From positions 1-64,000 of the IMG/VR virus record IMGVR_UViG_2576861193_000004: 64,000 nt of DNA. The stretch is one strand, 5' to 3'. The position numbers were made by a program, and so were the translations under genes. A model generated the notes under the pieces. That model saw only the letters and a program-made list of their open reading frames with translations. It made no database searches and was not told the origin of the DNA. Origin of the DNA: a virus (taxonomy: Duplodnaviria; Heunggongvirae; Uroviricota; Caudoviricetes). Shown in pieces: positions 3,863 to 36,348 of this stretch (within the stretch, counting starts at the first letter, position 1; every line of letters begins with the position of its first letter).

Positions 3863-4800
3863 TACCTTTCGAATGGAAGAACAAACACTTCAAGGTCTTC
3901 AAGGAACGAACGGAAATTCAGCTCGTAGCACAGTTGCTCGAATGCTTTCACGTCACGATTGCCTTTGATTGTTTCGATTTCGGTAGGCGGAAACTTCGTC
4001 TCAATCAGGTTCATTAGCGTGATGTTTCTCTTGAACGCTTCGAGCATTCGACAGCCTGTTTTCTCGTTGAAGGCATTCTTCGCTAGTTTGTTGAAGGCGG
4101 TCTTATGGCGTCCTTTGTCAACCACGATTGAGCCGTCGTTGATGCCGCGTACCATCGTTGCGACACTTCCCCATTCATGCAGCAGCTCTTTCGCACCGCC
4201 AGCACCAATGCCACCAACACCGCTAATGTTGTCCGATTTATCGCCTTGTAATGCTTTTGCTTCCAAAAATGCGCGAGGAGTAGCGAATCCTGTCAGCTCC
4301 GCAAATTGCTCAAAATTAACCTGCTTGTTTTTGGCGTCTTCGCGCAGGCTTACCCAGCTTACGTTTTCGCGAACTAACTGAAGCCAGTCGCTATCGCCTG
4401 TTAACAGATAGATGTGTTCAACGGTTGGCTGCGGTGCCATGCGGGATACCAGCAGCCCGGCCAGATCATCCGCTTCTGCATCTTTTGCAATGAGTTGGGT
4501 AACTCCAAGCGCGGTCATCATTTTGAGGATGTATGGCTTCTGGATAGCAAAGCCTTCCTTCATCTTTTTCATATCAGGATCGTCGTCGCGATTTGCCTTG
4601 TAGTCCGGGTAAAAGTCGCGACGCTTGTCACTAAATCCATCCCAAAGAATCATAGGTCGGGCATGGAGGATGGAGGCATAACGACGGACGTTCTTAACAA
4701 AGCCGAAAGCAGCCTGTACTTCCATTTCGCCGTTGTGCAATTTGTCAGATTGTTGGTGGTAATAACCCAGGCTATTGCCATCTACGAAGAGATAATTCAC
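3856..4800 (-). CDS. 5'-3' exonuclease / flap endonuclease (FEN, T5 D15 / RNase H-like)
   Basis: VDGNSLGYY N-terminal motif, GDSDWLQL, and H3TH motif GVGGIGAGGAKELL. Start moved to GTG at 4800 (GGAAGG Shine-Dalgarno 9 nt upstream) because the track start at 4851 overlaps the upstream terminator hairpin. Confidence 0.85.
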   Translation of the reverse strand: MNYLFVDGNSLGYYHQQSDKLHNGEMEVQAAFGFVKNVRRYASILHARPMILWDGFSDKRRDFYPDYKANRDDDPDMKKMKEGFAIQKPYILKMMTALGVTQLIAKDAEADDLAGLLVSRMAPQPTVEHIYLLTGDSDWLQLVRENVSWVSLREDAKNKQVNFEQFAELTGFATPRAFLEAKALQGDKSDNISGVGGIGAGGAKELLHEWGSVATMVRGINDGSIVVDKGRHKTAFNKLAKNAFNEKTGCRMLEAFKRNITLMNLIETKFPPTEIETIKGNRDVKAFEQLCYELNFRSFLEDLEVFVLPFERYC

Positions 4801-27045: not shown

Positions 27046-27813
27046 ATGGACGATTTATCGGTATACGCGAGATCATTGGATAAGGCTAAATACTATGTTT
27101 ACTGTCTCTATGATACAGAAGACAAGATGAAAAGACCGTTTTACATAGGAAAAGGCAAATCGACTCGTTGTCTCGATCACATCAAGTATCCCGATGACTC
27201 TCCCAAATCCATGCGGATCAAAGAACTTTTGGCTAATAAAAAATTAGGCATAGATATACTTCGTCATGGTATGGATGAAACCACAGCCAAACTTGTTGAG
27301 GCGACATGCATCGACCTTATGGGGGTCGGAGAGCTTACGAATAAGGTACGAGGAAGTGGTTCCATGATGGGCAGAATATCACTGGACGCCTACCATCACT
27401 TAGTGCTGCAAGAGGAAACTGAAATTGCTCCTGAGCACGCCGGTCTTGCCTTCCTGCTAAACAGCACCTACAAGTCAGGAATGTCCGCTCTGGCATTATA
27501 TGAAGCTACGCGTGGCGTATGGGCAAAGGTTCCAAGAGACGAGAATCTCAAATATGCCTACGCTACATATGGTGGGCTGATAATGGAAGTTTATCAGATT
27601 GAATGCTGGGTCAAAGCCGGTTCTCAGCAGTACTTTACAAGGGATATAGCTCTTGGCCCCGACACAAAACGTTATGAATTTGTTGGCAGAATAGCCGATG
27701 AGCATATTAGAAAACTGTATGTAGGCAAATTAATCAAGAAGCCACCAAGCTACGGTAGCCCTTTTGTGAAGGTTGGGGTGGTTAGGACTGAACATAGTGT
27801 TAGCGCGGCATAA
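27046..27813 (+). CDS. GIY-YIG domain nuclease
   Basis: N-terminal YYVYCLYD...PFYIGKGKSTR (GIY-YIG core); 255 aa with uncharacterised C-terminal half. Confidence 0.7.
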   Translation: MDDLSVYARSLDKAKYYVYCLYDTEDKMKRPFYIGKGKSTRCLDHIKYPDDSPKSMRIKELLANKKLGIDILRHGMDETTAKLVEATCIDLMGVGELTNKVRGSGSMMGRISLDAYHHLVLQEETEIAPEHAGLAFLLNSTYKSGMSALALYEATRGVWAKVPRDENLKYAYATYGGLIMEVYQIECWVKAGSQQYFTRDIALGPDTKRYEFVGRIADEHIRKLYVGKLIKKPPSYGSPFVKVGVVRTEHSVSAA

Positions 27814-27829
27814 AGCTGACACTGTAGTT

Positions 27830-27867
27830 ATGCATTGGCGCAATGTACGCGCCAATGCATGATTTTT
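27830..27867. terminator. bidirectional terminator between convergent genes
   Basis: Perfect 12-bp inverted repeat ATGCATTGGCGC / GCGCCAATGCAT with 7-nt loop, followed by gattttt. Confidence 0.6.
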
Positions 27868-28225
27868 AACCTTTCTTCATCAACTCTCGTTTGATTTCAT
27901 CGGTACGCATCGTGACATCGGCAGCGGTGATCGCCTCATTCAATTTCACGATGTCCTCGATTTCCTGCGGTGACTTCTCTGCCAGATGGAAAATGGCTGC
28001 TCGAATCACGTCAGAACGAGTGAACTTCTCGAAGCGAGGGATGAACTTCATCATCTCCAGCAGTTCGAAGTATTCGTCCTCCAGTGACATTGTGCGGCTT
28101 TTAATTTTCTCTTTGCCACGAGTCGGGCGTCCCTGTGGTCTGACTGGTTGGCGCAAAGGAGTTGTGTTCTTAGCCGGTGCATCAGGCTCTTTGCGCTTTG
28201 CTAGGTCACCCATTTTCATGGACAT
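27866..28225 (-). CDS. small basic partner of ParA (ParG-like, putative centromere-binding protein)
   Basis: 119 aa, basic N-terminus; gene start abuts the parA stop. Role inferred from position. Confidence 0.4.
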   Translation of the reverse strand: MSMKMGDLAKRKEPDAPAKNTTPLRQPVRPQGRPTRGKEKIKSRTMSLEDEYFELLEMMKFIPRFEKFTRSDVIRAAIFHLAEKSPQEIEDIVKLNEAITAADVTMRTDEIKRELMKKG

Positions 28226-28893
28226 TATTCTTCTTCCTCCAGACTCAACAGATAATCTACAAATTCTTCAAACTCGGCTTCCGCCTTTTTGTCGCGCTCG
28301 CTACCGGTCATTTCAAAGATAGAACGACCAGACTCTTCCGCATCATCATAGACGTTGCGGTTATACAGATTGACTGGCGCAGACTCGATTCCAAACGTCT
28401 CAACAATCTCTTTAGCCGCCAGAATGCGAGACACTTGTGATGGCAAAGCCGGACACTGGTTCATGACCGCGCGGACCTTCACTTTATCGTTTACATTGCG
28501 AACATTGTCGATAATAGGATCGATGTCACGTAAAGATTTCAAATCACGACGCTTAGGACGCAGCGGGATAATGATAACGTCAGCCATCAGCATCGCTTGT
28601 CGCTGAATTTCGGAGTCGAAGCCACCAGCATCTACCACTACAAACTCAGCTCTACCCTGAAGCGATTTTAGGTGCTTAATGATGTCATCCTGAACGTATG
28701 CAAAAGGAATCAGCTCAAGGTCTTCGTTCTGTCGACGGTCTTCACACCAGCTCGTTGTCGTGCGCTGAATATCTATATCGGTAATATAAACCTTCTTCTT
28801 CTTTTTGACTTTCAGGCAAACGGCAATTTGCTGGGCAACGGTGGATTTGCCAGGCCCGCCCTTTGTGCCGCCAACCACAAAGATCTTGGTCAT
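28225..28893 (-). CDS. parA: ParA-family partition ATPase (small type Ib)
   Basis: Deviant Walker A KIFVVGGTKGGPGKST at N-terminus, 222 aa. Confidence 0.85.
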   Translation of the reverse strand: MTKIFVVGGTKGGPGKSTVAQQIAVCLKVKKKKKVYITDIDIQRTTTSWCEDRRQNEDLELIPFAYVQDDIIKHLKSLQGRAEFVVVDAGGFDSEIQRQAMLMADVIIIPLRPKRRDLKSLRDIDPIIDNVRNVNDKVKVRAVMNQCPALPSQVSRILAAKEIVETFGIESAPVNLYNRNVYDDAEESGRSIFEMTGSERDKKAEAEFEEFVDYLLSLEEEE

Positions 28894-29211
28894 TGGAGAG
28901 TTCCCTTTGCGTATATAATTATCGTCTGAAACAACTTGTTTTCTTATATGTGATATAGCCTAAATGCCTACGGCTGCGGTGTAAAGGTTAAATGGTAGGT
29001 TGTGATTAACAATTGGCAATCATAGCTTGTATTTGTCTGTTGAAAAAAGTAACAATGACCTCTATATTACAAGTACGGTGATATGCCGTACACAATTTGA
29101 TAATGCACACGTAATGGGCTATAGCCTTTTAAAGTAATTTTTGAGTCGAAAACTCAGTTTGAACAGAGGAGATTGATGGCCTTCCTACATCACGGCCATC
29201 AGGAGGAATAC

Positions 29212-29481
29212 ATGTCAGCACTAAAAAAGCAGCGCATCGATTTGAGATTAACCGATGACGATAAAAGCATCATCGAGGAAGCTGCCGCAATGTCTAACCA
29301 GAGCATTACTCAGTTTATGGTTAGCAGTGCATCTGAACGTGCCGTGAAAGTTATAGAGCAACACCGTAGACTAGTTCTGAATGAAGAATCCTGGAATCTG
29401 GTTATGGACGCTATAAGCAATCCTCCGGCACCGAACGACAAGCTGAAACGAGCTGCTGATCGTCTGAAAAGCATGGAGTAG
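29212..29481 (+). CDS. DUF1778 (TacA/AtaR-family) antitoxin
   Basis: 90 aa MSALKKQRIDLRLTDDDKSIIEEAAA...NPPAPNDKLKRAA; AGGAGG Shine-Dalgarno 6 nt upstream of ATG 29212 (track start 29173 is TTG). Confidence 0.85.
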   Translation: MSALKKQRIDLRLTDDDKSIIEEAAAMSNQSITQFMVSSASERAVKVIEQHRRLVLNEESWNLVMDAISNPPAPNDKLKRAADRLKSME

Positions 29482-29488
29482 TTTACTC

Positions 29489-30010
29489 GTGAGCAATACA
29501 ACGATAGAGATTTTCTCTGGAGAGAAAGATTATGATCTAAACGGTTTTGATTGCGGCGAAGAGTCACTAAACGCCTTTTTAGCCAACCACTTAAAAAGGC
29601 AGCATGAGGGAAAAATTCTTCGTGCTTATGTGCTTTGCACTCAAGAAGAAAGGCCAAAAGTGTTAGGATATTACACTTTGTCAGGTAGTTGTTTTGAAAA
29701 GGAGTCCTTACCTTCAAGAAGCAAACAAAAGAAGGTTCCTTATCGGAATGTTCCAAGTGTTACTTTGGGTAGGCTGGCTTTGGACAAGTCCCTTCAAGGT
29801 CAAGGATTTGGCTCAATGCTTGTAACACATGCAATGCGCGTTGTGTACAATGCATCTCTTGCTGTAGGCATTCATGGACTTTTCGTTGAGGCGTTAAATG
29901 ACAAAGCCAAGGCGTTTTATAAAAGTTTAGGCTTTATCCAGCTGGTTGGTAACAACGAGCGTTCTTTGTTCTATCCTACAAAATCTATCGAAAAATTGTT
30001 CGAAGAATAA
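29489..30010 (+). CDS. GNAT-family acetyltransferase toxin (TacT/AtaT-like)
   Basis: 173 aa, GNAT motif A LQGQGFGSMLV; starts 8 nt after the antitoxin stop. Family members acetylate aminoacyl-tRNA. Confidence 0.85.
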   Translation: MSNTTIEIFSGEKDYDLNGFDCGEESLNAFLANHLKRQHEGKILRAYVLCTQEERPKVLGYYTLSGSCFEKESLPSRSKQKKVPYRNVPSVTLGRLALDKSLQGQGFGSMLVTHAMRVVYNASLAVGIHGLFVEALNDKAKAFYKSLGFIQLVGNNERSLFYPTKSIEKLFEE

Positions 30011-30042
30011 TGTGTTCCCCTCATTTGAGGGGAACTTCGACA

Positions 30043-30258
30043 TCACCAACCACAAACCCTCTCTCCCATCGTATTGTGAAAAAGGATTTGGCGTTCGGTT
30101 TCTTCAGTCATTACATCATTATTGCTGATATAGATAGGCTCAGCCCCATCGCAGAACAACACGCTGGCTGTTTGTGGTTTAATGACGCACCCACTTATCA
30201 TACAACTCACGATGAACGGCAGAAGCATCTTTCTGACGTATTTTACTGCTCGTCTCAT
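30043..30258 (-). CDS. Rz1-like outer-membrane lipoprotein spanin candidate (overlapped in Rz)
   Basis: Signal-peptide-like MLLPFIVSCMISGC with lipobox-like ISGC; overlaps the 3' end of the Rz-like gene in another frame. Confidence 0.35.
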   Translation of the reverse strand: MRRAVKYVRKMLLPFIVSCMISGCVIKPQTASVLFCDGAEPIYISNNDVMTEETERQILFHNTMGERVCGW

Positions 30259-30430
30259 TCACCACTTTCACTGTGTTTTGAAGTCGTTTTCTGTCTTCCT
30301 GTTTTGCCTTCTCTTCCATTGCTCGTCGCGCCGCATTCCCGCCCATCGTGTAAGCGCCGACAAGAACGAAAAGAACGGCAGCCAGCGTAATCAAAGCAAC
30401 TTTTAGCTTTGTCATCAGGCTGCCTAGCAT
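30179..30430 (-). CDS. Rz-like inner-membrane spanin candidate
   Basis: 83 aa: N-terminal TM (VALITLAAVLFVLVGAY) followed by charged helical region; located downstream of the putative lysin. Confidence 0.45.
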   Translation of the reverse strand: MLGSLMTKLKVALITLAAVLFVLVGAYTMGGNAARRAMEEKAKQEDRKRLQNTVKVVNETSSKIRQKDASAVHRELYDKWVRH

Positions 30431-30431
30431 A

Positions 30432-31151
30432 TTAGACCATCCCTTTCTGGTGTTTTCTTACCTGCGACCAGGCAATGAATCCTGCCACAACAATAGTGGC
30501 AATACCGAAGATGATGCGTACTGTATCCCCGCTAGAGATATGACCTTGTGCTTTATCCATAGCAGCGGAAACCTGCGGCATAACATCGGCCAGCTGCGCC
30601 AGACCAATACCTGCTGTAACAGTTGCGCCTGCGGTTTCTTTAGTTACAGGAACAGCCTTCACGGTTTTCACCGGCTTAACAACGCCAGCTCGACGCAGAC
30701 CTTCCTCAATAACTTCTGCCGCATACCAGGTGTTCAGCGTTTTTAGCGGGCCTCGGCCATTCTCGTGGCGAATGATTGCCTCAACCAAAGGTCGAAGGAT
30801 GTCGTAATCATGCAGATCGATGATCATGTCTGCGGTTACACCAACGGCTTTAGACACCTCATTAATGTAGGCGTCAGTATTGTTTTCATTCGGCGGTGCC
30901 CAGCGTTCAATAACTTCACGAATGGTATCGATACTTGTGCCGTCTTTTGCGCGACGTTTATCGTGGTAGGTAATTAGAGTCACCGCCAGCGCACGAATCC
31001 CCCAAACAGGGTCTTTAAACGTGCAAAAGCGCGGTTCGTCTGGATTCGCAACCAGACCTTGCCACGGTGATCCTTTATCAAGATTACCGGGGTTATTATT
31101 ACGAATGCCTCTCGGAGTTTTCATCCTTGATCTCCTGTTATTGCAGTCCAC
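30432..31151 (-). CDS. putative cell-wall hydrolase / endolysin with C-terminal transmembrane helix
   Basis: 239 aa with GIRNNNPGNL motif near the N-terminus and C-terminal hydrophobic segment IIFGIATIVVAGFIAW; assignment rests mainly on position between holin-like and spanin-like genes. Confidence 0.35.
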   Translation of the reverse strand: MDCNNRRSRMKTPRGIRNNNPGNLDKGSPWQGLVANPDEPRFCTFKDPVWGIRALAVTLITYHDKRRAKDGTSIDTIREVIERWAPPNENNTDAYINEVSKAVGVTADMIIDLHDYDILRPLVEAIIRHENGRGPLKTLNTWYAAEVIEEGLRRAGVVKPVKTVKAVPVTKETAGATVTAGIGLAQLADVMPQVSAAMDKAQGHISSGDTVRIIFGIATIVVAGFIAWSQVRKHQKGMV

Positions 31152-31473
31152 TTTTTACGCCATACGCGGCTAACCCCAAAAGCAGTGCGGTAATAATGAA
31201 CGACGTTATTTTAGAAACAATGCCGCCAAAGAACCCACTGGAGATGGTGTCGAGCCGGTTAAGAAGTTTGTCCAGATTGGAGTGCTGAATGCTGTGTTGT
31301 GCGGGCGTCATATCGCCAAAGTAGGTTTTGAGCTGGTCATTGACCTCCTGACCAATTTCCTCGCGTATTTCTTTACCTAATTTGCCTACGACTTCCCGAG
31401 CAACGATTGAGGCGATGCGCTCAACCTGTTCAGTTGTGACTCCCGCCATCTCGTTCGACATGTTTTCCTCCAT
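31138..31473 (-). CDS. tail-anchored membrane protein (holin candidate)
   Basis: 111 aa, hydrophilic N-terminus and single C-terminal TM (ITSFIITALLLGLAAYGV); first gene of the lysis cluster. Confidence 0.3.
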   Translation of the reverse strand: MEENMSNEMAGVTTEQVERIASIVAREVVGKLGKEIREEIGQEVNDQLKTYFGDMTPAQHSIQHSNLDKLLNRLDTISSGFFGGIVSKITSFIITALLLGLAAYGVKSGLQ

Positions 31474-31594
31474 GAAAAGTCAAATCGGGATGGCGTGTTT
31501 ATATCATATTTTAACCATTTGTAGTAGGTATGTACTTACCTACTATATATCTTGCAAACTAATCGTTGTTAATAATGCAGATATAATCTGCCCC

Positions 31595-32176
31595 TTACTC
31601 TGCTGGTATTGTTGGCCACTCAATATCAGGTGCAGTTGATGTATCAACACGGTTCAGCAACACCCGATACTTTTTCCAGGCTTCCAGCAATGAGTTTTCT
31701 TCCTCCGTTGCGATTTCCAGATCTACAGCATCCTGAAGTGGCGCAATATGCTCACTGGCTACCTGCATCAGGTTGTTTTTTGTTTCTTCCGCCTCCCGGA
31801 TCCGGAACAGTTTTTCTGCTTCCGTATCCTTCAACCAGGCTGTGCCGTTCCACTTCTGATATTCCCCTTCCGGCGATAACCAGGTAACATTTTCCGGTAA
31901 CGGACCGAGTTCAGAAATAAATAACGCGTCGCCGGAAGCCACGTCATAAACCGTTTTACCCCGATGATCTTCAACGAGATGCCACGATGACTCATCACTG
32001 TTGAAAACAGCCACGAAGCCAGCCGGAATATCTGGCGGTGCAATATCGGTACTGTTTGCAGGCAGACCTGTATGAGGTGGAATATATGCGTCACCGTCAC
32101 CAATAAATTCATTAGTTCCGGACAACAGATTATAAATTTTTATGGTCCGTGCTTGTTCACTCATTCTGAATGCCAT
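31595..32176 (-). CDS. tfa: tail fiber assembly protein (Tfa, lambda Tfa / T4 gp38-like)
   Basis: 193 aa; start overlaps the stop of the fiber gene; typical Tfa layout and sequence character. Confidence 0.8.
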
Positions 32177-35100
32177 TATGCAAGCCTCACAATATAGTTA
32201 AATGCGATGTTTTTGACGGTGTTTTCCGCGTTACCAGCAGCGTTAACGGTGATGGTGTGTCCATGTGAGCCAATCGCAACCGAGTGCGTATGCGCACCAA
32301 TACCTACAGTATGTGCATGTGCGCCAGAACTTGCTGCAGTACCAGACAGCGAGTGGGTATGAGCACCTGCTGACTGTGTCTGAATACGTTGATAATACGA
32401 TCTACTGGAAGAAGTCCCCGGGCTTACTTGATACTGTGAATCCTGGACATAAGTGAACCCACCGCCATCATAAAATGCTAACGCAGAACCGCCGCCTCCT
32501 GGCCAACGAATACCATTACCATGAGTATGAGCACCGGCAGCCCCCGTAGAGCCACTCAGACTGTGCGTATGCGCCCCGGTGTTATTCGTGGATTTAGTGC
32601 CGTAATCAAACGACGATGTGGTTTTCGTCCCCAAATCCGTACTGGATGCGCTGGCGCTGTGGGTGTGCGATTTAATGCCGTCCTGTTCCTGAGACAATAC
32701 GGCGCGACCACTGGCAGGTTTGCCCTTAATCGTCCAGCCACGCATATCAGGGATCACGCCTGACGGATAAGCGGCTGCAAGTTTCGGGTAAGCAGATTTG
32801 TCAAAAGTCTGCCCCTGCATCAGGGCATAGCCAGACGGAACGGTATCTGATGGCCACGGGATTGGTGCACCGACTGGATAAAACTCTGCAGGAGGATGAG
32901 CCGAGGTGTAAAGCTGCGCCCACGGCGACCAGTTTGCGTCGGTCGTATCCCGTCGTGAACGAATAAATGCCGGAGCATGAGCACCGCTTGTACCACTCCA
33001 GCCAATTAGCAACTCTCCCTCACCAGCAACTCTCGCACCTTTCATGTGCAATACGTTGCCATACGTGGTCGGGTAGCTATTGTTGTACGCCTCGTACATT
33101 TGAATGCCAGCAGTGCCTTGAGTAGAGCCGCTTAACGCCGTAACTTGGCCACGAGATACCAATGTATTAATGTTGATATCGCCTGAGCCATCAAACTTAA
33201 CACCATTGATGTTTCTCGCTGTTTGCAACTTCGTAGCTGTTGAAGCATTACCGTTCAAACTACCATTTACGCCACCAGTCACATTTAGTCCATTACCGAT
33301 CGTAACAGCACCATTGGCATTGTTAATGATAAGCGGCCTTAAACTATTCCATGATCCAAGATTGTCACCCGAGGCGGTCAACATGAAGTATGTGTTTGAA
33401 CCATCGTTTCGGATAAAGAATCCGTAGTTTCCGCAGACAATGCGCAGACCATTCGCCGATTTTGAAATGATCTCACCAGAAGATGTCAAACCTCCAGATA
33501 ATGTACCACCGGTAAGAGGTAATGCACCGACATCAGAGGCTGTTGGTTTGTTTTTCGTGTTATATACTCTTCGCCATCCTGGAGAATAATCTGTGCCATT
33601 AAATACATAGATAAACTCCGCATTAGTGAGAGCACCAGAGACACTCGTCGTTGTGGCCGTTGTTATACGGATCGTATAATTGTTTGAGCTACTACCGTTA
33701 TTAAATACCTCTATAACAGCTCCTGCCAATGGAATAACGCCACAACCAGTTTCACTATTTGGTATGGTTGCACTATTGGCATAGGCCCACGCACATCGAG
33801 CAATCCATGACCTTGTGGTAAACGCGCCGTTATTTTGCAATAACGTCACTAACTGTGCTGTTGTTATTGCTCCGCCATTACTTCCTGTAGTTAACCAACC
33901 AGTAGGAGATGCCGGGCAACCTATATCGGCAGGCCCCAACGATATATTTCTTGTGCCATCAAACGCAATACCGTTGATGGTTCTTGCGGTTTGCAACTTC
34001 GTAGCAGTAGCCGCGTTGCCCGTTGTATTCTGATTACCAGTCGTATTAACACCTGGCAAATTAATATTCGCAGTACCATCAAAGCTCACGCCGCCGATAG
34101 TTCTTGCCGTCTGAAGTTTTGTAGCAGTTGCAGCATTACCAGTGGTGTTCTGATTACCCGTAGTATTTACACCTGGAAGGTTGATATTTGCAGAACCGTC
34201 GAAACCAACTCCACCGATAGATCTTGCCGTCTGCAATTTCGTTGCTGTACTTGCATTACCATTTAATGTTCCGGTGATCCCACCAGTAACAGACAACGGA
34301 CCTGAAACTGTTCCTCCGGTTGTTGGCAGTGCACCAATATCTAACGGCGTCGGTTTCTTATGTGTGCTATACATCGTATAAACAACACCATCGGTAACGC
34401 TGGAAGGCTTACTCGCTGAATATGTTGGCGATGTATAAATAGAAACTGTCGCATTTGCAGTACAATCCCAATGGATATTTACACTAGTCGCATAATTGCC
34501 AATCTCAACGTAAATATCATATGTATCGCCGGATGTGTTGATCCAGGCGAAATTCGTTAATCCGACGGCTGTACGCTTCCACAAAGCCCCGGTAATTCCT
34601 TTGGGCATTCCATTGCCTGCTCGTAGAACCAGTTCTGAAATGCCTGCCTGTTGAGGTGACCCCACGTTAAATCCCGCGCCACCAATCAATGCGATGTAAA
34701 CGATGGAACTATTTTGTGGCATGGTAACCGTAGCCAGTTTGAACCACCCAGCCCCGCCAGAGAAAGACATCGTTATTGAATTTAAAGTACCAATATCTTT
34801 CGGCGTTAATGTGATATCCGCAGTCAGTGCTTTCCCGTTAATTTTTCGGTTAGATGGCACCCTGCTGTTCGCATTGTCATTGACTACTTTAACTGCTTTT
34901 GGCGTTGCGGCCAGCGATTCACTGGTGCTGTCGACAGCACTGCTAAGTTTCACAACACCTTTAGTTGTAAGGCTTGCGTCTTCCATCGCAACTGCACCGG
35001 CAATCTCTTCAGCACGATCAGCAGCAGCTTCCGCACGGGTCGCAGCGGATTCAGCAGCAGTTTTGCTCTGAGATGCTGCCGTCGCACTGCCAGCTGCCTC

Positions 35101-36348
35101 TGTCGCCTTCGTGGATGCCGTCGTGGCGCTGCTCTTCGCTGCTGACGCCTGTCTGGTCGCCTCATCTTTTGAAGCAGACGCCGATGATGCCGATGACGCC
35201 GCCGAACTGGCGGACGATGCGGCTGCCGTTTTTGAGGATTCTGCACGGGTTTCCGACGCTTTCGCGTTCGTTTCGGATGTCTTCGCTGCGGAAGCAGACC
35301 TCGCTGCTGCGCTGGCCTGTTCAGTGGCTTGGCCAGCCTTCGTTGTGGCAGTTGAAGCAGACGATGCGGCACTTTCTGCCGATTTTCCGGCGGCGGTGGC
35401 ACTGGCTGAGGCCTGCCCGGCACTTGTTGACGCGGCACTGGCAGACGACGCAGCCGCTGTTTTTGAGCCTGCCGCAGCCGAGGCGCTCTGTCCCGCTGCC
35501 GTTTCAGAAGACCTGGCGTTCGTCTCGGACGTTTTTGCCGCCTTCGCGGAATTTCCTGCCGCCGTTGCCGAGGAAGCGGCATTACTGGCGCTCGAGGCTG
35601 CGCTCGTTTCTGATGATTTCGCTGCCTCTTTTGAGGCCGCCGCATCCCGGGCTGAGGTGGCAGCTTCTGACGCCTTCGTGGTCGCGGTGGATGCAGAAGT
35701 GGCTGCAGATTTTTGTGACGCTGCAGCATTCGTTTCAGATTTTTTCGCATCAGTTGCACTCGCACTTGCGGCACTTTGTGAGGATGCCGCAGCGGATGCA
35801 CTTTGAGACGCTTGAGAGGCTTTTTCTCCAGCGGCATTGGCGCTTTTTGCTGCTGCGGCAGCACTGGCCGCCGCCTCACGAGCTTTGTCGCCAGCAGCAT
35901 CAATCGCGTCAGTGTTATTTTTATACCACTCAACGTTTTCGTTGTGCTCGTTGACGATCTGCATTAGCGGCTTAACGGTCACTTCTGTACCGTCTTCACG
36001 CTCGATTGTCACCTCATCCAGCGCAGTCAACCAACTGCGTATGGACTTGGAATCAGCCGACATACGCGACATTAGCGCAGTAAAGCGCGCGCTAAACTGT
36101 GTTAAGTCGCCTTCATAGGTCGTAATGATTCGGCACGGAACTTCAGACTGAGTTTCGCCGGTATAAGGTTCTGAGAGAACAATGTTCGTATCACTGGTTA
36201 CGCGCTTGATCTCATACAGCTTATTGTCGGGGCCAATGACGATCATCCCCGGCAACACACCATTAGCTGTTACGTTCCAGGCTGTCCCTGCCCCAACCAG
36301 AGTATTGCTGCCCTGTGTAAATGTGATAGTACCTTCCCTGTACCACAT
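32176..36348 (-). CDS. stf: side tail fiber protein (Stf-like) with Ala/Ser-rich rod and Phage_fiber_2-type repeats
   Basis: 1390 aa; repeated units [40 protein letters not shown]; C-terminal His-rich GAHTHS repeats typical of T4 gp37 / lambda Stf distal regions. Confidence 0.85.
33930..34330. repeat. tandem DNA repeats (about 111 bp units) encoding fiber repeat motifs
   Basis: Three near-identical consecutive units visible in the DNA within the fiber gene. Confidence 0.7.
34990..35900. repeat. low-complexity GC-rich region encoding the Ala/Ser/Thr-rich fiber segment
   Basis: All six frames are open here (spurious ORFs 34950..35933, 34974..35954, 35111..35806) because of biased GCN/TCN codon composition. 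Confidence 0.8.

Follow-up and report, generated by a model that had tools for sequence, protein, structure and literature searches.

Lysis cassette of an SSU5-like phage-plasmid: a predicted membrane-anchored Enc34-type endolysin and chi-type spanins behind an uncharacterised tail-anchored protein

How does a tailed phage open its host when its late region appears to hold neither a recognisable holin nor a recognisable endolysin? The question is raised by positions 30043–31473 (minus strand) of a 64,000-nucleotide (nt) stretch of viral DNA from IMG/VR record IMGVR_UViG_2576861193_000004, hereafter the window. An earlier note, made from the letters alone, had described this segment as an atypical lysis cassette in which two tail-anchored proteins, one carrying an RNNNPGN motif, stand in place of the usual pair ahead of overlapped Rz/Rz1-like genes. 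The window is part of an SSU5-like phage-plasmid, and 30043–31473 is its late host-lysis cassette. We consider it likely that this cassette combines a membrane-tethered endolysin of the Enc34 type and spanins of the chi type with a small membrane protein, the product of gene 1, that serves as their timing or trigger partner. The cassette type is known; its different, uncharacterised first gene is the new part.

The lysis region shares 97% nucleotide identity with Escherichia phage Cyrano, known in E. coli LF82 as the phage-plasmid pLF82, and 82% with Salmonella phage SSU5. A lysis role, as the earlier note had proposed, is supported by the homology of the endolysin and spanins and by the same cassette being labelled in both relatives. 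By the same token the cassette was not unrecognised: its four genes are labelled Holin, Endolysin, Rz spanin and Rz1 spanin in the GenBank record of Cyrano, and putative holin, endolysin and Rz-like spanins in that of SSU5. The Cyrano labels are annotation only, because the Cyrano paper, in which the element was shown to make virions, makes no mention of a holin, an endolysin or a lysis cassette (PMC9928086). Among plasmids, 544 PLSDB records were matched by the query, mostly non-mobilizable elements of ~105–115 kb from Escherichia, Enterobacter, Salmonella and Citrobacter.

Four co-oriented, tightly packed open reading frames (ORFs) are present in the segment, and their order on the minus strand, 5' to 3', is gene 1 (in the holin slot), the endolysin gene, the i-spanin gene and the o-spanin gene (Table 1). 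As judged from sequence these are genuine genes rather than chance ORFs, because gene 1 and the endolysin match PHROG families with E=1e-67 and E=6.5e-89, respectively. The first two are probably shorter than the 111 and 239 amino acids (aa) originally given. For gene 1, the more probable start is the fifth codon, ATG 31461, of the 111-aa ORF (31473..31138), because it is preceded by GGAGGA and yields the 107 aa annotated in Cyrano and SSU5. For the endolysin, ATG 31124, preceded by AGGAG, is more probable than GTG 31151 of the 239-aa ORF, since it gives the 230 aa annotated in relatives. This ATG sits 13 nt past the gene 1 stop codon, and the i-spanin gene starts 1 nt past the endolysin stop codon. 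The single strong C-terminal transmembrane (TM) segment ascribed to each of the two proteins was confirmed by hydropathy.

Turning to the second gene, the GIRNNNPGNL motif is present, and the protein that carries it is clearly, by homology, an endolysin of the Enc34/M4Lys/chi gp38 type (PHA02564), predicted to act as a glycoside hydrolase. Residues 10–160 of the 239-aa ORF match a crystal structure, that of the Hafnia phage Enc34 endolysin's catalytic domain (PDB 7Q47_A; phmmer, E=3.9e-54), and the protein belongs to phrog_873, annotated 'endolysin'. Pfam and NCBIfam hold no matching model; the profile search that had been suggested for this protein was empty in those two collections and returned a recognisable endolysin through phrog_873 and 7Q47, so that the view that it falls into no nameable endolysin family is not sustained. 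Counted along the 7Q47 alignment, Trp79, Tyr95 and Glu131, singled out as important for catalysis by the Enc34 authors, have W75, Y86 and E121 as their counterparts in the 230-aa protein, and all three are invariant in 30 homologues of 57–96% identity. The catalytic domain is modelled by AlphaFold2 with a predicted local distance difference test (pLDDT) score of 80–96. Previous studies have shown that the catalytic domain of Enc34 ORF39 is muralytic and a diverged relative of GH23 and GH73 enzymes (PMC8943055), and that the catalytic domain of M4Lys, from phage BSPM4, has N-acetylglucosaminidase activity (PMC7143992). More than 2000 homologues of the endolysin were found in a large protein collection, the majority of them called 'hypothetical protein'; in phages, it is chi-like siphophages that carry the complete protein, at ~55% identity. 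By itself, the catalytic domain is also found inside virion proteins, namely T7-like internal core proteins and tape-measure proteins, and its presence in both virion proteins and endolysins implies one enzyme domain used for entry and exit. In PDB entry 9VVP, the first ~115 residues of chain L (Gp29, 1295 aa) are an RNNNPGN domain (E=6.6e-22).

Behind the catalytic domain lies a C-terminal membrane module composed of a linker, a weakly hydrophobic Gly/Ala/Thr-rich helix, a strong TM helix (~203–221) and a basic tail, QVRKHQKGMV. The strong segment gives a Kyte-Doolittle (KD) 19-residue maximum of 2.07 (residues 213–231 of the 239-aa ORF), and the second, weakly hydrophobic segment ~30 residues upstream reaches a KD value of ~1.1. 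In the 30-homologue alignment, E163, G174, Q177, P183, S198 and Q221 of the module are invariant, and the module is ~54–55% identical to those of chi-like phages (53.8% to that of M4Lys); by these comparisons its conservation goes well beyond mere hydrophobicity. AlphaFold2 predicts, at low confidence, three helices (162–170, 176–192 and 199–228) in the C-terminal 75 residues. In a tblastn search of 50,697 phage records with the module (81 residues), it was seen only within Enc34-type endolysins (177 records), and a PHROG search with it returned phrog_873, a weak compositional match to a membrane protein with two TM domains (TMDs; E=0.004) and nothing else. The module was also considered as a fused, once free-standing holin, an idea for which no homology support was found.

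A separate observation concerns a homologue on Logan contig SRR30563942_22230 (our locus L094, positions 3868–4563), which lies behind a phrog_5093 member, the family of gene 1. This protein is 40% identical to the window endolysin and has lost the entire catalytic signature: ERWAPP is replaced by CEYRNL, RHENG by VMYNG and GIRNNNPGN by GICINNPGL. Its C-terminal membrane module is still well conserved, which suggests that selection can act on a function belonging to the module itself.

Experiments on homologues indicate what this function may be. The genome note on phage Siskin was the first to propose such proteins as a new class of endolysin, having two TM domains at the C-terminus in an N-in/C-in arrangement (PMC6498227). 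M4Lys alone lysed E. coli 20–60 min after induction; azide delayed this lysis but did not block it, removal of the TM domain, or of the last 13 residues alone, abolished it, and the TM domain by itself was bacteriostatic (PMC7143992). Full-length Enc34 ORF39 is likewise toxic to E. coli, and in the words of its authors 'No known translocation mechanisms' account for export by the C-terminal TM domain (PMC8943055). The suggestion that lysis here may be non-standard finds support in the literature on homologous endolysins, which gives no known route to the wall. Drawing on these homologues, which are 55% identical to the window endolysin, we propose that the latter, having no export signal, would accumulate at the cytoplasmic face of the inner membrane, tethered by its C-terminal module. 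The module, and not a separate large-hole holin, would then breach the membrane and let the catalytic domain reach the peptidoglycan. Once the wall is degraded, the spanin pair would disrupt the outer membrane.

The overlapped Rz/Rz1-like genes reported downstream of the fibre genes are present, and genes 3 and 4 are, from their sequence features, a two-component spanin of the chi type. The i-spanin matches phrog_1026 (Rz-like spanin, E=7e-25) and is predicted to have an N-terminal TM helix (residues ~9–29) followed by a charged periplasmic helix. The o-spanin matches phrog_1275 (Rz-like spanin, E=1.3e-24); its gene, with candidate starts at ATG 30258 or ATG 30228, overlaps that of the i-spanin by 80 nt (30179–30258) in another frame. 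A signal-like hydrophobic segment ends in the lipobox I-S-G-C, in which the putative lipidated Cys is codon 24 of the 71-aa ORF. The protein is visibly homologous to chi gp40, and in a published census of spanins the o-spanins of SSU5, Chi and Enc34 fall into one group (PMC6139136).

The cassette can be compared as a whole with those of Enc34 (ORF38–41), the Salmonella phages chi (gp37–40) and BSPM4 (ORF_37/M4Lys), and Siskin. Three of the four genes are common to the window and these chi-like phages: the endolysin is ~55% identical over its full length, membrane module included, with the same catalytic signature and fold family (7Q47), the i-spanin falls into the same PHROG, and the o-spanins are homologous. 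The order of small membrane protein, endolysin and overlapped spanins is the same too. Chi-like siphophages have genomes of ~60 kb, whereas the window derives from a ~108-kb phage-plasmid, and the principal difference lies in the first gene. Gene 1 was tried as a holin of the chi gp37 type (proposed class IV) and rejected: it is non-homologous to chi gp37 (BLASTP E=17), and its TM helix stands at the opposite end, chi gp37 and Enc34 ORF38 having an N-terminal TM helix and a predicted N-out/C-in topology. The window thus presents a natural swap, with a chi-like endolysin and spanins yet a non-homologous, topologically inverted first gene.

The 107-aa product of gene 1 has one strong hydrophobic segment (KD 19-residue maximum 2.02, residues 85–103 of the 111-aa ORF), corresponding to a single TM helix at ~85–102 that is followed by ~5 residues. 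Its sole PHROG match is phrog_5093, annotated 'unknown function'; Pfam gave no match at E up to 1, and NCBIfam returned noise only. In the annotated phage collection gene 1 occurs in 12 records, all SSU5-like, and an exhaustive HMMER search of 1.84 billion representatives recovered at least 56 clusters at E up to 0.001. Alignment and conservation refer to 46 of the cluster representatives, every one of which matches phrog_5093 and none of which has a Pfam match at E up to 0.01. Family members are 94–143 aa long, with the TM helix in the last third throughout and an anionic N-terminal domain (median net charge –3). G49, H56 and H60 are invariant in the 46, and F48, R62, L67, D71 (D or E) and a Gly within the TM helix are nearly so; in the window protein, the TM helix carries the conserved small residue G96 together with aromatic belts. 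An AlphaFold2 model (pLDDT 90) places helices at 10–48 and 53–104, meeting at the conserved Gly, and the modelled fold thus amounts to a helical hairpin whose second helix would run on into the membrane. The His-x3-His pair lies at the start of helix 2, beside the inter-helix turn; were the two helices packed as a hairpin, it would occupy the membrane-distal end. Searched as a fold, this model had no counterpart in the PDB at E up to 10 or in BFVD below E=2; such searches are uninformative because a two-helix hairpin is too simple.

Also of interest is a prophage of Alcaligenaceae bacterium GCA_013416345.1 (locus L102, 2205–2504), in which the gene directly upstream of an Enc34-type endolysin encodes a tail-anchored protein of 99 aa. 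Its sequence F-P-D-G-D-P-E-S-H-R-R-Y-H stands in register with the family motif F-G-D-M-T-P-A-Q-H-S-I-Q-H. An hhalign comparison was not significant (E=0.02, probability 2%) and the protein was not counted as a member; it may be a very divergent relative or a convergent protein.

As had been noted, gene 1 does not have the topology of a canonical holin. Class I and II holins have two or three TM helices and class III holins one TM helix with a large periplasmic C-terminal domain; gene 1 has neither arrangement, and it matches no described holin family in Pfam, PHROG or NCBIfam. Like lambda S (class I), S21 (class II) and T4 T (class III), it is small, heads its cassette directly before the endolysin gene and has a highly charged soluble domain; it also shares a single TM helix with T4 T. 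In contrast to the canonical holins, its TM helix comes at the very end of the chain and no periplasmic domain follows, the charged domain is N-terminal, and the most conserved residues are at the tip of the soluble hairpin. A canonical holin elsewhere, which together with a standard endolysin would have spoken against an atypical cassette, was also sought. No other gene is annotated as a holin in the Cyrano record. Hydropathy scans covered the Cyrano coding sequences and all window ORFs: the remaining small membrane proteins of Cyrano map to early or accessory regions and have non-lysis or unknown PHROGs, and in the window no small ORF with several TM segments was seen near the late genes on the coding strand. 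Of the two, then, a recognisable endolysin was found, and a separate canonical holin was not found in Cyrano or near the late genes of the window.

An indication of what gene 1 does comes from its neighbours. Searches for distant relatives in IMG/VR gave nearly only SSU5-like copies or nothing, a metagenome scan gave one short contig, and genome scans gave nothing or only Enterobacterales phage-plasmids; family contexts were obtained by exact-protein look-ups of contigs, and are cited here by locus numbers beginning with L. Twelve distinct family members have a readable downstream gene, and in 11 of these 12 contexts an endolysin gene begins within a few bases of the member's stop codon, often with overlapping stop and start codons, so that gene 1 adjoins the endolysin gene as holins do. 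The endolysin is of the Enc34 type in three contexts (window/SSU5-likes, L087, L094), of the Peptidase_M15_3 type in six (L084, L085/L086, L091/L092, L113, L191, L192), of the GH108 + PG_binding_3 type in one (L095) and of the Amidase_2 type in one (L096/L097). Upstream genes vary, radical-SAM enzymes and tail fibres being among them. Lysis genes are usually recognised by just such a pattern, in which a small membrane protein stays constant ahead of interchangeable endolysins. The pattern, as read from gene order, supports a lysis role for gene 1, as a holin or a holin-like cofactor, without specifying which.

These contexts also bear on a function outside lysis, in which gene 1 would be a moron, a superinfection-exclusion membrane protein or a tail-fibre accessory caught between the fibre and lysis modules. 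In SSU5, morons coding for Cor and other membrane proteins do separate the fibre genes from gene 1, and the window has a recombination junction just upstream of gene 1. Such a role is nevertheless unlikely because a constant small membrane protein precedes four unrelated endolysin families: adjacency to the endolysin is kept across very different phages, the upstream neighbours vary where the downstream endolysin is constant, and a consensus ribosome-binding site and the 13-nt spacing tie gene 1 to the endolysin gene in the window. We therefore regard this account as highly improbable.

In the reading we prefer, gene 1 would encode a tail-anchored inner-membrane protein with an anionic cytoplasmic hairpin of ~80 residues and almost nothing in the periplasm, which times or triggers lysis either as a single-TMD holin of new topology or as a holin-like cofactor that sets the moment at which the endolysin's membrane module acts. 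In other phages, the element under such control would be a separate 2-TMD protein. The invariant Gly-x6-His-x3-His hairpin tip could be where the protein acts, whether it oligomerises, binds a metal or senses protons there. This role for gene 1 is drawn only from position, topology and the conserved gene neighbourhood.

Several points weigh against the proposed arrangement. On the endolysin side, AlphaFold2 assigns a pLDDT of only 41–66 to the membrane module, and the authors of the Enc34 study caution that holin-independent lysis by M4Lys may be an overexpression artefact (PMC8943055). In chi-like phages, the first gene, which is not homologous to gene 1, was dispensable for lysis in E. coli, and the BSPM4 upstream gene failed to restore lysis to M4Lys ΔTMD, that is, it could not release the truncated, soluble endolysin (PMC7143992). 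For gene 1 itself, the N-in topology is predicted only from the absent export signal and a weak bias in flanking charge. Finally, of the eight cassettes whose endolysin is soluble and signal-less, five also encode a small 2-TMD protein of 72–91 aa right after the endolysin (L086:1157-1408, L091:4791-5066, L096:4300-4557, L113:4285-4503 and L192:3847-4068). They represent two families or more, one phrog_6637-like and one phrog_8494, each annotated 'unknown function'. Three share the pattern '...RPY(V/L)T...WFxER', two of those three matching phrog_6637; one protein matches phrog_8494, and that of L192 has no family assignment. They are probably unrecognised holins or antiholins, and such a 2-TMD protein could be the true holin, gene 1 then being accessory.

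The division between cassettes with and without a 2-TMD protein is pertinent to a further explanation, that gene 1 acts autonomously as a holin and represents a new topological class, its one TM helix being C-terminal and its orientation N-in/C-out; it would oligomerise into timed lesions, and the endolysin's module would only concentrate the enzyme at the membrane next to them. Two cassettes fit this: in L191 the family member is the only membrane protein called beside a signal-less endolysin, with no 2-TMD protein, and in L095 the nearby membrane proteins all have a single TM helix and a 2-TMD protein is again absent. Gene 1 also comes first in its cassette, as in lambda and P2-type cassettes, and its partners belong to four unrelated endolysin families, mostly signal-less and hence needing a hole; G96 and the aromatic belts of its TM helix fit helix–helix packing. 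A single TMD has a precedent in phage T4 T, which is a holin with one TMD. Most soluble-endolysin cassettes, however, carry the extra 2-TMD candidate, no holin family matches gene 1, and conservation is strongest at the membrane-distal hairpin tip rather than in the TM helix, which is unusual for a hole-former. The M4Lys and Enc34 endolysins are, moreover, lytic or toxic without a partner (PMC7143992, PMC8943055). Possibly gene 1 is such a holin, though on balance we doubt it.

Alternatively, gene 1 could be a membrane-tethered cytoplasmic regulator that forms no hole, an antiholin or a protein resembling the releasin Mu gp25, which controls or speeds up the membrane transition of a two-helix element. 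Mu gp25, of 99 aa, places an anionic domain of 73 aa in the cytoplasm and only four residues in the periplasm, and it accompanies diverse endolysins, both signal-bearing and signal-less (PMC9239132). Gene 1 is likewise ~100 aa long and encoded in the lysis region, and the predicted architecture of its family would be compatible with a releasin: a median net charge of –3 for the N-terminal domain, ~5–10 residues after the TM helix, and several endolysin classes, four families in all, downstream. The predicted topology of gene 1, with its anionic domain of ~80 aa and ~5 residues past the TM helix, would be the mirror image of that of gp25, which is by analogy the closest functional precedent for a regulatory gene 1. 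Differences are apparent in position and partner: gp25 is encoded within five genes downstream of the endolysin and works with an N-terminal signal-arrest-release endolysin, whereas gene 1 is immediately upstream of a C-terminally anchored one. In sequence, neither the window protein nor any of the 46 members matches DUF2730/PF10805, the releasin domain, similarity to gp25 is absent, and the TM helix is C-terminal, at the opposite end. The likeness is therefore one of predicted topology only.

A regulatory gene 1 also accords with the distribution of the two-helix element, fused to the endolysin in SSU5-likes, L087 and L094 and free-standing in L086, L091/L092, L096/L097, L113 and L192; the L191 and L095 cassettes, in which this partner is absent, do not fit. 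A comparable pair is known in Acidovorax phage AP1, where, as in the window, an endolysin with a C-terminal TM domain follows a single-TMD protein. The TM domain of LysAP is needed for localisation and lysis, and HolAP, a small protein encoded immediately upstream, caused neither lysis nor loss of viability alone, yet accelerated lysis and interacted with LysAP (PMC8879335). The catalytic domain of LysAP is GH24 lysozyme-like, unlike that of the Enc34-type endolysin in the window. Taken together, we regard the regulator as a credible account that nonetheless falls short of an even chance.

We tentatively suggest, with reservations that outweigh our confidence, that gene 1 founds an undescribed class of tail-anchored lysis protein, an endolysin-independent timer or trigger (a holin of new topology or a releasin-like controller) present in many uncultured phages and in SSU5-like phage-plasmids, in which the Enc34-type endolysin would be the two-helix element fused to an enzyme. 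Either outcome for gene 1 would add to current schemes, by a new holin topology or by an extension of the 'releasin' concept. Enc34-type endolysins are among the few families whose crossing of the inner membrane is not understood, and the catalytic domain also has an applied side, since antibacterials against Gram-negative bacteria are being engineered from Enc34 and M4Lys. Enterobacterales widely harbour SSU5-like phage-plasmids, and phage-plasmids, SSU5-like elements among them, reportedly often carry resistance genes in published surveys; their lysis genes decide whether these elements spread as phages.

Table 1. Positions of the cassette features in the window
Feature	Position	Strand	Basis
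Gene 1, holin slot, 107 aa	31138..31461	-	ORF and Shine-Dalgarno sequence, phrog_5093
Endolysin catalytic domain, residues 1–150 of 230 aa	30675..31124	-	PDB 7Q47, phrog_873
Endolysin C-terminal membrane module, residues 151–230 and stop codon	30432..30674	-	Hydropathy, conservation
Predicted i-spanin (Rz-like), 83 aa	30179..30430	-	phrog_1026, hydropathy
Predicted o-spanin (Rz1-like) lipoprotein, 71-aa ORF	30043..30258	-	phrog_1275, lipobox
Terminator-like G+C-rich hairpin	30014..30035	-	9-bp stem, 6 G–C pairs

Upstream of the cassette are a gene for a 1390-aa tail fibre (36348..32176) and, after it, a tail-fibre assembly gene (32176..31595; Caudo_TAP, E=8.6e-44). A mosaic breakpoint lies just upstream of the cassette (junction 31551–31610), similarity to Cyrano stopping near 31550. 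Beyond it, the tfa gene together with the fibre gene's 3' end (within 31595–36348) is 95–97% identical to lambdoid stf/tfa genes (mEp460, HK630, ev099), which implies exchange of host-range modules between the phage-plasmid and lambdoid prophages. A sigma-70 promoter scan of the cassette gave hits no more numerous than in shuffled sequence.

On its other side, the cassette is closed by the hairpin 3' of the o-spanin gene (30035..30014), which is common to the convergent GNAT-toxin gene. The latter belongs to a pair of a ribbon-helix-helix (RHH) antitoxin and a GNAT (KacT/TacT-like) toxin (29173–30010, plus strand), convergent with the o-spanin gene, and further on lie a ParA partition ATPase and a small downstream partner (27866–28893, minus strand). 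These plasmid-maintenance genes adjoining the cassette agree with the Cyrano annotation. Next to the par genes and on the opposite strand is a 255-aa ORF (27046–27813, plus strand), where Cyrano has a differently oriented hypothetical gene. Its N-terminal 'YYVYCLYD...PFYIGKGK' recalls GIY-YIG nucleases, and it may be an inserted homing-endonuclease-like gene.

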